This document shows positions 4,707 to 13,193 of a DNA stretch of 50,068 bases, in pieces. The notes under the pieces are model-generated. The model worked only from the letters and a program-made list of their open reading frames with translations, had not been told where the DNA came from and ran no database searches. The first letter of the stretch is position 1, and every line of letters begins with the position of its first letter. This DNA is from Holosporales bacterium. GTDB lineage: Bacteria > Pseudomonadota > Alphaproteobacteria > UBA3830 > JAIRMZ01. The DNA is taken from the NCBI GenBank assembly GCA_031266655.1, contig JAISAP010000046.1, positions 1 to 50,068 on the forward strand. Direction: 5' to 3'. The position numbers and the translations under genes are program-made.

Positions 4707-6020
4707 ATGACGAAACAAAAGATTTTGGGTGCGATTGCTGCGTTTGTTGTGGGAGCGCTAGGGGCACTTTCCGAGACGAAGGCGATGCCTCCGTTCTGGG
4801 AGATATCCCCTGATGGGTTTGGCTTTTGCAAGAGGGTGGAAGCTCATGGGGGAATGCTTGTAGAGGCTCCGACCACTCTTAGCCGTGGAGAGAGAGTGGA
4901 TGGCCCTACCTTTGGTCCTCCATTACGGCGCTTCCACGTTCCTGCACAAGTGGGGATCATGGCTGGAAGATGTTTTGCAGGCTGCGGGCTTCTTTCTTAC
5001 GTTGCCTTCGGGGCCAATTCTCAGCTCACAGAGATAGGAGAGTACGCTTTTGAGAACTGCTCCAGCCTGCAATCTATCCGTATCCCGGCGGGCGTAGTAG
5101 TGATTGGAGCGCAATGTTTCGTGGCCTGTAGGGCCCTTGTCCACATTCACTTTGAACCTGGTTCTCAGCTCACGGAGATAGGAGCAAATGCTTTTAACCA
5201 CTGCTCTAGTCTGTTCTCCATTTGTATCCCTGCAGGTGTACGGACGCTAAAAGTTCAGTGTTTCTGCATGTGCCGTGCCTTAGCCCATGTTTCCTTTGAG
5301 AGGAATTCTCAACTCGAGGAGGTGCGAGCTGGGGCGTTTGCCTGCACAGGTCCGATCTGCGTTCGTTTGCCACATAGAGTAACCTTTGGACCGTATCCAT
5401 TTAGGGGCTGGGGCTCCGGACTTGTGGGCTCTTCCCCCAAAGTGTTCTTTGGGGATAAGAAAGCGGGCGATTGTGATGGTATTCGTGGAGGCACTGATCT
5501 AGGAATTGCTACAATCCCTAAGGACTGTGAAACGCTCCCACCTTACTGCTTTCAAGACTGCCATTTTCTTACCTTTGTCAACTTTGAAAGGGAGTCTTGC
5601 CTCACGGTGATAGGACAAAGCGCCTTTCAGCGCTGCATATTCTTGCACTCCATCTGTATCCCAGCGAGCGTACAGAAGGTGGAGGAGCGTTGTTTCTCAC
5701 TGTGCAACGGTCTCTTTTCCGTCTCCTTTGAGCTGGGTTCTCAGCTCCGAATCATTGGGTCCCGCGCTTTTTCGGGGTGCAACAGATTGCAGTCCATTTG
5801 TATCCCTAAGGGCGTTGAAGAACTGAGAGGGGAATGTTTCGCGGGGTGTATCAATCTCTTGTCCGTTTCCTTCGAACAGGGTTCTCGGCTGCGGTGCATT
5901 CTACCAGGAACTTTTGCCGAGTGCTCTCAGGCACTACGGGTCATCCTGTCTCCGGGTGGGAAGACCCTCTGTTCCTGGCAGCTTGAGCAAGGTTGGGGTA
6001 AGCCGTCTAATCCAAGCTAG
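4707..6020 (+). CDS. BspA-type LRR protein, secreted (paralogue 2)
   Basis: ORF 4620..6020. Start re-set to ATG 4707 (MTKQKILGAIAAFVVGALGALSETKA|M) by alignment with paralogues. Repeated units of the form IPAGV..IG..CF..C..L..V.FE.GSQL.EIG..AF..CSSL. C-terminus QLEQGWGKPSNPS. Confidence 0.85.
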   Translation: MTKQKILGAIAAFVVGALGALSETKAMPPFWEISPDGFGFCKRVEAHGGMLVEAPTTLSRGERVDGPTFGPPLRRFHVPAQVGIMAGRCFAGCGLLSYVAFGANSQLTEIGEYAFENCSSLQSIRIPAGVVVIGAQCFVACRALVHIHFEPGSQLTEIGANAFNHCSSLFSICIPAGVRTLKVQCFCMCRALAHVSFERNSQLEEVRAGAFACTGPICVRLPHRVTFGPYPFRGWGSGLVGSSPKVFFGDKKAGDCDGIRGGTDLGIATIPKDCETLPPYCFQDCHFLTFVNFERESCLTVIGQSAFQRCIFLHSICIPASVQKVEERCFSLCNGLFSVSFELGSQLRIIGSRAFSGCNRLQSICIPKGVEELRGECFAGCINLLSVSFEQGSRLRCILPGTFAECSQALRVILSPGGKTLCSWQLEQGWGKPSNPS

Positions 6021-6022
6021 CG

Positions 6023-6036
6023 CCCCCCCCCCCCCC
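6023..6036. repeat. poly(C)14 homopolymer tract
   Basis: 14 consecutive C, 2 nt after the stop at 6020 and about 90 nt upstream of the next paralogue's -35 box. Confidence 0.9.
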
Positions 6037-6125
6037 TGCTCAATTGAAGGGGCGCATCCCTTTGACGATAGGTGTTCTGCTCAGGAAGACCCACCTCCTC
6101 TTCTCGGCGTTTTTACTTTACTACA

Positions 6126-6154
6126 TTGGTTATTTTGAAAATCTGTTCTACGCG
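6126..6154 (+). promoter_or_regulatory. putative promoter of the 6186 paralogue (TTGGTT-17 nt-TACGCG)
   Basis: Positional homologue of the TTGACT-17-TACnnn cassette. The -35 lies exactly 60 nt before the ATG, with AAGGA 9 nt before the ATG. Confidence 0.4.
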
Positions 6155-6185
6155 CTATACGTAAACAGTAATAAGGATAACAAGA

Positions 6186-10510: not shown

Positions 10511-10542
10511 TCATCTGCAAACGGCAACAGGGAGGGCCAACC

Positions 10543-11538
10543 ATGAAGAAATGGACTTTGAGTACGATCACTGCATGTGTGTTGGGGATGCTGAGTGTGC
10601 TTCCCAAGGTAGAGGCGATGGAGCCACGCCCAGGCGAAACAATGCAGTGGCCGCCGGAAGAACCTTCTAGTTGGCCTCTCTTCAGGGCAAGGATTGCTTG
10701 TGATGGGCAGCGTATTATCTTCACGGGAGAGGGAAATGTTGTCTTTCAGGTCTTTCTCGTTGACTTACTGCCGGAAGTGCCTCGGGGACTCAGCCCCAGT
10801 ATGAGCCTGCGGTCCGTTTGTATTCCCATAGATGTGTTGACGCTCACTGCAAGGTATTTTGCAGATTGTGGCTCTCTTTTTTCTGTGAGCTTTGAGAGTG
10901 GTTCTTGCCTAACAATGGTAGGAGAGAGCGCTTTTAGGCACTGCTCCAGCTTGTCAGCCATTTGCATTCCCGCAAGCGTGAGGATACTTGGACGGAATTG
11001 TTTCTCCCATTGCACATCGCTTTTCTCTGTCACCCTTGAGCAGGGTTCTCGTCTTGAGAGAGTAGGGGAAAGCGCTTTTGAGCACTGCTCCAGCTTGTCA
11101 TCCATTTGCATCCCAAGAAGCGTGTTGACCCTCTATCCAGGGTGTTTTGCAGATTGTGGCTCTCTTTTTTCTGTGAACTTTGAGAGGGGTTCTCGCCTAA
11201 CAATGGTAGGAGAGAGCGCTTTTGAGCGCTGCTCCAGCCTGCAATCCGTTTGTATTCCTGCAAGTGTGGAACTGCTCGATGCAAGGTGTTTTTCCAATTG
11301 CTGTTCTCTTATTCAAGTCACCTTCGAAGCGGGATCTCAGCTCGTGGTGGTAGAACGCGGCGCTTTTAGACGCTGTCCCGGTCTGCCGCTCATCTCGGTC
11401 CCCGAGACCGCGGAGAGACTGGGGAGATTTCTCATTGATCACGAAGGATCTCCCCCTGAGACCGGTTCTCAGCTCCAAACGAAGGAGGAAGTCGTTGCTG
11501 GAGACAGTCAGGAGCAAAGGATGGATCTTCAGTGGTGA
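10543..11538 (+). CDS. BspA-type LRR protein, secreted (paralogue 6)
   Basis: 331-aa ORF. Signal peptide MKKWTLSTITACVLGMLSVLPKVEA|M. LRR units with CF.(D/H)C.SLFSV. N-domain is similar to the 7486 and 6186 genes. Confidence 0.88.
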   Translation: MKKWTLSTITACVLGMLSVLPKVEAMEPRPGETMQWPPEEPSSWPLFRARIACDGQRIIFTGEGNVVFQVFLVDLLPEVPRGLSPSMSLRSVCIPIDVLTLTARYFADCGSLFSVSFESGSCLTMVGESAFRHCSSLSAICIPASVRILGRNCFSHCTSLFSVTLEQGSRLERVGESAFEHCSSLSSICIPRSVLTLYPGCFADCGSLFSVNFERGSRLTMVGESAFERCSSLQSVCIPASVELLDARCFSNCCSLIQVTFEAGSQLVVVERGAFRRCPGLPLISVPETAERLGRFLIDHEGSPPETGSQLQTKEEVVAGDSQEQRMDLQW

Positions 11539-11720
11539 AGAAAGATCCCGTTTCGCGGTTCAATGAAGGCTGAGGCGAGGGAGCCACCTGATGTGAGCTA
11601 GGGTCCACTGGCGTCTCTTCGTTGCGTCCTCATGGAGAGGAACATCGGCTTCTCTTTTGGCAAAAGGCATTCGGCTCAGAAGAGCCCGCCCCCTCTTCCC
11701 GGAGTTTTGATTTTACTACG

Positions 11721-11749
11721 TTGATTACTTTGAAAGTCTGTTCTACGCA
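11721..11749 (+). promoter_or_regulatory. putative promoter (TTGATT-17 nt-TACGCA)
   Basis: Conserved cassette. The -35 lies exactly 60 nt before ATG 11781. Confidence 0.4.
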
Positions 11750-11780
11750 CTGTACGTAAACAGTAATAAGGATAACAAGA

Positions 11781-13193
11781 ATGGGGAAACAAAAGATTCT
11801 CGGTGCGCTTGCTGCGCTTGTTTGGGGGACGTTGAGTGTGCTGCCCAAAGCAGGGGCGATGCCTCCGTTCTGGGAGATATCCCCTGATAGGTTTGGCTTT
11901 TTCAGGGGAGTGGAAGCTCAGAGAGGAATGCTTGTGAAGGCTCCGACCATTCTGGACAGTGAGGGAAGAGTGGGTCGCCGCTTTAGTCCTCAATGGCGAC
12001 GTTTCTGCGTTTCTGCACAGGTAGTGGTCGTTGCTGAAAAATGTTTTTCAGACTGTGAGTTTTCTGCCTTCGTTGCCTTTGAAAGGGGTTCTCAACTTGA
12101 GAGGATAGAGGGGAGTGCTTTTGGGTGCCACACGGGCCTTCAATCTATCTGCATCCCAGCGAGTGTGGAGGAGCTTGGAGAAAAGTGTTTCTCCAATTGC
12201 TGGTCTCTTTTCTCGGTTACCTTTGAAAGGGGTTCCCGCCTCACCACGATCGCAAGCAGCGCTTTTGATGGCTGCTCCCACCTGCCATTCCTTGTCATTC
12301 CCGCAAGCGTGTTGGCGCTGGAGAATCGCTGTCTCAGCAGGTGCTATTCCCTAGTCTGCGTCACCTTTGAAAGGGGTTCTAAGCTTAAGAAGATAGGAGA
12401 GAGCGCTTTTGAGTACTGCTCCCACCTGCCATTCATTTGTATTCCCGCTGGTGTGAAGGCGCTGGAGGATCACTGCTTCAGCATGTGCCATTCCCTACGC
12501 CTCGTTACCTTTGGTAAGGATTCTCAACTCCGGAAGGTTGGAGCGGAGGCGTTCTCCTGCGCAGGTTCGATCTGCGTTTGTCTTCCATGTAAGTGATCTG
12601 GGCACGGTCTCCATTTAAGTACTCTTTCCCCGAAGTGTTCTTTGGAAATGAGGAAGCAAACGATTGTGATGGTACTCGTGGAGGCACTAACCTAAAAACT
12701 GTTACAATCCCCAGACTATGGAGTGCTCTCACCTTTCTGCTTTGCAGACTGCCGGCTTCTTTCCTCCGTTACCTTCGAACAAGGTTCTCGTCTCCAAACC
12801 ATTGGGTCTCACGCTTTTTCGGAGTGCATTAGCTTACAATCCATCGTTATCCCCAAGAGCGTTGAAGATCTGGGAGAGAGTTGTTTCTTCCAGTGCCGTC
12901 TCTCTTCCGTTTCCTTCGAACAGGGTTCTTGTCTCCAAACCATTGGGTCTCACGCTTTTTCGGAGTGCATCAGCTTGCGATCCATCGTTATCCCCAAGGG
13001 CGTCGAAGAACTAGGGGAGGGGTGTTTCGTGCTGTGTTCCGCTCTCACCTCCGTTACCTTCGAGCGGGGTTCGCGGCTCCGACGCCTTCCACAAGGAACT
13101 TTCGCCAATTGCTCTCAGCAACTACAGGTCATCCTGCATCCAGATGGGAAGAGCCTCTCCCTCCAGCAGCTTGCACAAGGCTGGCAGCGCTAA
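11781..13193 (+). pseudogene. BspA-type LRR protein with two frameshifts (paralogue 7)
   Basis: Three colinear pieces: 11781..12596 (frame 0), 12593.. (frame 2: SPFKYSFPEVFFGNEEANDCDGTRGGTNLKTVTIP), and 12723..13193 (frame 0). Alignment to the 6186 gene indicates a 1-nt loss near 12585-12610 and a 2-nt loss near 12700-12720. Confidence 0.7.

Follow-up and report, generated by a model that had tools for sequence, protein, structure and literature searches.

Mosaic tandem genes for leucine-rich repeat proteins in a Holosporales-related alphaproteobacterium suggest short-tract gene conversion between paralogues

Why do neighbouring genes for leucine-rich repeat (LRR) proteins share identical ends around divergent cores? 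The question is raised by contig JAISAP010000046.1, a 50-kb stretch of DNA (50,068 nucleotides (nt); hereafter the window) from an uncultured Holosporales-related alphaproteobacterium, represented by one genome from one sample (SRR14710922). Seven LRR genes stand in tandem on its plus strand (A to G, 4707-15129) and two further ones lie nearby (H and I, 18408-21944). An earlier reading of 4707-13193 made from the letters alone (the sequence-only reading) proposed that these paralogues are mosaics shaped by gene conversion, and likened them to the variation loci msp2/p44, vls and pilS. The array reaches past 13193, where G (13321-15129) is a further member and H and I are additional paralogues. 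Our analysis supports the mosaic and departs from the likeness. The locus is likely explained by birth-and-death evolution together with short-tract gene conversion, acting on tandem LRR paralogues that would each be expressed independently.

All nine genes match Pfam LRR_5 (PF13306, BspA-type LRR) with 66-360 bits against a cutoff of 27.7, and with E-values from 5e-18 to 3e-109. Gene A (4707-6020; 437 amino acids (aa), E=6e-67) is intact and comprises a Sec signal peptide, a 'MPPFWEISPD' N-domain, two LRR blocks with a linker between them and a QLEQGWGKPSNPS tail. Genes B (6186-7353, E=3e-52) and F (11781-13193) have the same architecture and are frameshifted, F combining an A-like N-domain with a B-like upstream region and LRR block. 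Also intact are C (7486-9549; 687 aa, E=3e-109), with a 'MEP..GVIACGGRC' N-domain and a QLEQGWGSCLSELDVEF tail, E (10543-11538; 331 aa, E=1e-36) and G (602 aa, E=2.5e-107), the final gene of the array; D (9650-10291, E=5e-18) is a truncated, degenerate copy of E. Beyond the main array lie H (18408-20573, E=2e-94), with near-identical internal 141-nt units, and I (20730-21944, E=1e-57), whose N-terminal alignment shows an A/F-like N-domain motif.

The AlphaFold2 model of A has a mean predicted local distance difference test score (pLDDT) of 78. An N-terminal helix, corresponding to the signal peptide, is followed by a low-confidence N-domain and by two LRR solenoid blocks (about residues 70-230 and 270-415, both with pLDDT>90) separated by a low-confidence linker (234-264). 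Foldseek places the BspA-type LRR surface proteins 4gt6 and 4fs7, PcpA (4cp6) and TpLRR (6mlx) at the top of the matches to this model, which also include the BspA-type protein 4h09, with E-values from 2.5e-11 to 1e-5. The N-terminus has Sec-type features, namely a K-rich n-region, a hydrophobic helix (model residues 3-25) and a cleavage-like site between A and M. By motif and model, the family is one of BspA-type LRR proteins with predicted Sec export. P0001, a homologue from a different Holosporales metagenome-assembled genome (MAG), shares both the MKKQK...AEAM signal peptide and the C-terminal QLEQGW cap; at the protein level the conserved ends are therefore traits of the family, not recombination anchors peculiar to the array.

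Genes A and B are joined by two exact tracts. The sequence-only reading had reported that 4713-4787 and 6192-6266 are identical over 75 nt, and direct comparison confirms it: the tract spans signal-peptide codons 3-27 and is the longest exact direct repeat of the whole window. Given an A-B identity of 0.68 elsewhere, the chance of such a run is roughly 3e-11. The 3' ends had been given as identical over 42 nt (5979-6020 and 7312-7353); the identity extends 2 nt further to the left, so that the tract measures 44 nt (5977-6020 in A, 7310-7353 in B), covers the final 14 codons with the TAG stop, and ends at that stop codon. Each tract fills an island of homology with non-homologous flanks. To the left of the 5' tract, A has its own upstream region on the recN side, and to the right the N-domain types part at the codon of the cleavage site. 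Past the 3' tract, A runs into a stretch of 14 cytosines and B into a stretch that has homology with the C and F tails.

A mosaic map, built from a three-way alignment of A, B and F and from a sliding-window search for the best match of each gene elsewhere in the array, shows that A, B and F each change their nearest paralogue from one stretch to the next. The upstream region of B is F-like (85% overall, up to 93% in windows, with a 33-nt exact run), its signal peptide is that of A, and its N-domain is C/E-like. Further along, its middle LRR block is F-like (82-88%), its linker A-like (85-93%), and its tail again that of A. The sorting of N-domains noticed in the sequence-only reading holds as well: A pairs with F (78% between 4706-4905 and 11780-11979, including a 34-nt exact run), and B pairs with C and E (B-C 76%, comparing 6269-6362 with 7590-7683; C-E 75% over 138 nt). 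Most of the exchanged patches are old ones, with identities of 70-93%.

Statistical tests show the mosaicism to be real. Permuting the polymorphic sites in the manner of GENECONV gave p<5e-5 for both the A-B signal-peptide run and the A-F N-domain run, p=1.5e-4 for a run in the LRRs of B and F, and p=0.009 for the 3' tail shared by A and B, and in MaxChi none of 500 permutations reached the observed value for any pair. Applied to the 5' regions of A, B, C, E, F and G, the pairwise homoplasy index (PHI, in our own implementation) was significant at p<0.001. Neighbour-joining trees built from one non-repetitive segment after another disagree, grouping B with F in the upstream region (98% bootstrap), A with B in the signal peptide (100%) and A with F in the N-domain (100%). 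The sequence-only reading had proposed breakpoint tests and had held that congruent segment phylogenies would speak against its claim of mosaic paralogues; tests and trees alike uphold that claim. Synonymous divergence (dS, Nei-Gojobori) tells the same story, since between A and B it is 0.05 in the signal peptide, about 2 in the N-domain, 0.88 in LRR block 1, 0.12 in the linker, 1.04 in LRR block 2 and 0.37 in the C-cap, shifting more than 10-fold between adjacent segments of one gene pair. Selection at the protein level is unable to erase synonymous differences in one pair alone, so the exact tracts record a recent transfer of sequence. The mosaic is best explained by recombination, or gene conversion, a mechanism that we infer from its products.

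Exchange is accompanied by decay and by gain and loss of repeat units. B lacks 143 nt relative to A, which produces a frameshift near 7175: its open reading frame (ORF) spans 6186-7208 and its tail lies in another frame (7177-7353). Because of this frameshift, gene B carries two differing public annotations, of 340 aa (NCBI) and 157 aa (JGI/IMG), which belong to a single 90% cluster. Aligned with E, D shows deletions of 55 nt and 144 nt together with a 5-nt deletion that shifts the frame, and F has lost 1 nt near 12591 and 2 nt near 12713 (two frameshifts) as well as 4 nt in its tail. B, D and F have thus decayed through ordinary indels, and their ends are not truncated. The cores differ in their number of LRR units, through indels of 141-144 nt. 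F contains a recent internal tandem duplication of a 141-nt unit (12756-12896 and 12897-13037, 87-95% identity) and in H exact runs as long as 58 nt recur 141, 282 and 423 nt apart (19954-20467); these near-identical units indicate recent unit duplication or intragenic homogenisation. Along the array, intact (A, C, E, G) and degenerate (B, D, F) copies strictly alternate. A two-gene segmental duplication relating B and C to F and G was considered and rejected, as C and G are alike only in their upstream region and signal peptide.

What precedes the degenerate copies bears on whether they act as silent donors. Upstream of B lies a conserved element (6111-6185, plus strand; TTTTACTTTAC..ATTGGTTATTTTGAAA..AAGGATAACAAGA) that is a putative promoter, and alignment identifies homologous elements on the same strand before C (7411-7485), D (9575-9649), E (10468-10542), F (11706-11780) and G (13246-13320). 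The pattern shared by B to G, TTTTACTTTAC..ATTGACTATTTTGAAA..AAGGATAACAAGA-ATG, occurs in exact form three times in the window against zero expected. A Shine-Dalgarno (SD)-like purine motif, an ATG and a signal peptide are present at nine of nine copies, and the degenerate copies B, D and F retain all of these as well as the upstream element. Because each gene carries expression and export signals of its own, we infer that these are independently expressed paralogues and not silent donors feeding one expression site. A dyad or hairpin lies between the putative promoter and the SD-like motif at 6150-6170, 9612-9630, 10505-10523 and 11745-11765 (for example TACGGATCATCCGTA before D and CAGATCATCTG before E). 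RNAalifold predicts a weak hairpin in the upstream elements (-7.45 kcal/mol) with little covariation, one pair covarying (GC in three copies, AU in three); it could be a common operator or a hairpin of the 5' untranslated region. An Rfam scan of the window found four tRNAs and no other RNA element.

The comparison with msp2/p44, vls and pilS rested on real resemblances. Like msp2/p44, vlsE and pilE/pilS, the array has conserved flanks around variable cores, clustered and partly degenerate paralogues, and signs of gene conversion. In those systems, however, there is a single expression site, and the donors are transcriptionally silent, truncated and promoterless cassettes (PMC11946796, for msp2/p44). 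A single promoter-bearing site with promoterless copies lacking their 5' ends is not what this locus contains; judged on its sequence, the silent-cassette model fails its defining test. The cores here are, moreover, LRR arrays of varying unit number, most patches are old, and the ends are kept in P0001, so the likeness drawn in the sequence-only reading does not stand. We consider it quite improbable that this is a dedicated antigenic or phase-variation locus, in which one or a few expressed genes would be diversified at high frequency from B, D and F as degenerate donors. Such a reading could call on the conserved ends around divergent cores, on the alternation of intact and degenerate copies, and on two homopolymers, C14 (6023-6036, plus strand, 2 nt past the stop of A) and C9 (7368-7376, plus strand, 15 nt past the stop of B), the two longest of the 50-kb window (C14 being the longest), which might serve as hypermutable or recombination-promoting elements. 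These poly-C tracts may indeed be hypermutable, or may instead be scars left where recombination joined sequences; yet both lie outside coding sequence, ahead of the conserved element of the next gene and 75-90 nt before its putative -35 element. The supposed donors are neither promoterless nor truncated at the 5' end, and most patches are old, at the 70-93% given above. No canonical G-quadruplex (G4) motif, the cis element of pilE, was found within 4400-22100, where only the C14/G14 homopolymer appears. The material is also limited to one sample, and a look-up of protein clusters returned singletons throughout and no near-identical variants. A related possibility, which we regard as unlikely, is a contingency locus in which frequent short-tract conversion continually reshuffles the modules for signal peptide, N-domain, LRRs and tail within a host population, with the frameshifted copies as sequence reservoirs and with possible contributions from length changes of C14 and C9 or from G-rich structure. 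If true, a protist- or invertebrate-associated alphaproteobacterium would have a variation system founded on BspA-type LRR proteins.

Two other readings dispense with recent recombination. Strong purifying selection on the signal peptide and the C-terminal cap would fit the similar ends of P0001 and the fact that the 5' module is the best conserved part among B, C, F and G (70-85%). Synonymous sites, however, escape protein selection, and over the same signal-peptide codons dS is 0.05 for A-B against 0.61 for A-F and 0.73 for B-F; the other signal-peptide pairs are just 54-79% identical, and the segment trees conflict. Selection alone is already disfavoured, and we hold it to be highly improbable. 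An assembly artefact, that is, a spurious mosaic produced when the metagenome assembler merged or wrongly connected paralogues at short repeats, we likewise judge very unlikely. The organism comes from one sample, the contigs of a k=31 assembly end at the repeats of 75 and 44 nt, and a swap of the A and B bodies between the two repeats is an equally valid path through the graph. Under either path, however, the exact tracts are still common to two otherwise divergent genes, and the similarities of 70-93% between A and F, B and F, and B and C are not creatable by mis-joining. In an independent assembly of SRR14710922 (k=31 Logan contigs), three contigs of 4.1, 2.6 and 4.3 kb match the window with 100% identity at 644-4742, 7310-9893 and 12941-17286. 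The first stops 30 nt (k-1) into the 75-nt repeat, the second (L004) begins exactly at 7310, the first base of the 44-nt repeat, and stops 30 nt into an exact tract shared by D and E, and the third begins at the internal repeat of F. Since the contigs break at exact repeats, the repeat k-mers occur in two contexts in the reads, as the contig ends show. The exact products of C and G are encoded on Logan contigs (C on L004, G on L003). L004 leaves the 44-nt repeat on the B side only, which would fit poor read coverage through C14. Exact repeats break short-read assemblies, so that gene content and linkage at such MAG loci call for long-read confirmation.

Birth and death with short-tract conversion thus remains the likely account, and its steps can be outlined. 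The family would evolve by tandem duplication, by gain and loss of 141-144-nt LRR units, and by frameshift decay. On top of this, homologous recombination between copies, through non-reciprocal gene conversion or unequal crossing-over, would carry short patches across paralogues. The exact A-B tracts in the signal peptide (75 nt) and at the 3' end (44 nt) would be the latest of these patches, and the A/F N-domain, the B/F upstream region and LRR block, and the A/B linker would be older ones. Several points weigh against this account. With the very divergent D, H and I included, PHI falls short of significance, because the alignment of all nine paralogues is saturated. Repeat mis-registration inside the LRR blocks may imitate mosaicism, and the safe evidence is that of the non-repetitive upstream, signal-peptide, N-domain, linker and tail segments. 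Only the original assembly connects the flanks across the 75-nt and 44-nt repeats, since the k=31 contigs end at both. A generic sigma-70 scan misses the upstream elements, with only a site before gene I passing, and a combined sigma-70 and terminator scan gave no enrichment; independent transcription is for this reason deduced from the conserved elements themselves. Finally, exchange is read from a single genome, strain and read set.

The closest working analogue, by comparison of organisation, would be the bab family of Helicobacter pylori. Its paralogues have homologous 5' and 3' regions around a variable middle and form chimeras through intragenomic gene conversion (PMC4552749). Conversion tracts begin near the start codon, and each paralogue is expressed from its own locus (PMC4552749). 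The LRR array shares with babA, babB and babC the homologous ends, the divergent middle and the conversion chimeras, and putatively the independent expression. It differs in fold (an LRR solenoid here, an outer-membrane protein adhesin there) and in layout (tandem here, dispersed there). For bab, moreover, conversion has been documented both between strains and in the course of infection, and it is linked to phase variation by CT repeats in coding sequence, whereas here exchange is read from one assembled locus. With BspA-type LRR proteins such as Tannerella BspA, pneumococcal PcpA, TpLRR of T. pallidum and the LRR surface proteins of gut Bacteroides and Firmicutes, the family has in common the repeat type, the fold and the secretion signal; distinctive are the Holosporales-type host, the family-specific N-domain and QLEQGW C-cap, and the tandem arrangement of seven plus two genes. 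Among amoeba endosymbionts, Parachlamydiaceae have tandem families of LRR-, F-box- and BTB-containing proteins that arose by duplication and birth and death (PMC4209131). Large families of repeat-protein paralogues in intracellular symbionts, tandem arrays and birth and death are thus common to both. Those families belong to another phylum and have other domain combinations, and birth and death was favoured over concerted evolution for them (PMC4209131), whereas short conversion tracts are clearly detectable in the LRR array described here.

Expanded families of eukaryote-like repeat proteins are the foremost candidates for host-interaction factors in intracellular symbionts that cannot be cultivated, and the LRR proteins are probably host-interaction proteins of an intracellular Holosporales-related alphaproteobacterium. 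The array is still being reshuffled, as its exact 75-nt and 44-nt tracts and its recent unit duplication indicate, and is a target for study of how a secreted repertoire may diversify. Gene conversion among tandem paralogues is a well-known mechanism, and mosaicism of this kind is an established phenomenon; the protein family in a Holosporales-type lineage is, as far as we could find, undescribed. Our literature search found no paper connecting Holosporales with BspA-type LRR proteins, nor any naming SRR14710922.

The affiliation of the source follows from two sets of matches. The Lon protease encoded in the window is 77-81% identical to 'MAG: Holosporales bacterium' proteins, and the nearest database homologues of the LRR proteins (32-36% identical) come from Holosporales MAGs; the source is therefore an uncultured Holosporales-affiliated alphaproteobacterium. 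A RecN search of GTDB genomes for relatives gave a single match, in Clostridia at 30% identity, and JGI metagenomes queried with the conserved upstream pattern and with RecN yielded nothing. Look-ups of the exact products of A (with two start codons), E and the Holosporales homologues P0001 and P0004 returned no record. Genes flanking the array include ligA, recN, rsmB and genes for a ChpT-like phosphotransferase and a histidine kinase. Within the array, the spacer between B and C (7354-7485) contains no stop in the frame of C, the TAG of B (7351-7353) being the sole stop before the ATG of C, and the frame of G is open for 306 nt upstream (13015-13320), across the F-G spacer into the tail of F. 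These open frames may be due to chance in two homologous spacers.

Other repeat families occur in the window. A second tandem family, on the minus strand at 28231-33123, consists of five genes for His/Pro/Ala-rich low-complexity proteins (28231-29460, 29508-30416, 30442-31233, 31349-31984 and 32200-33123) whose signal peptides resemble one another (M..YK.F..AIALSV.F.SG...AM); no Pfam or NCBIfam family matched them, and they contain exact repeats of up to 59 nt. Genes of the GT25 glycosyltransferase family are phase-variable in some pathogens. Three GT25-family paralogues stand in tandem here (33245-34171, 34176-35087 and 35089-36003) and share exact tracts of up to 41 nt. Just upstream of them, a G9 homopolymer (32295-32303) lies inside the minus-strand ORF 32200-33123.

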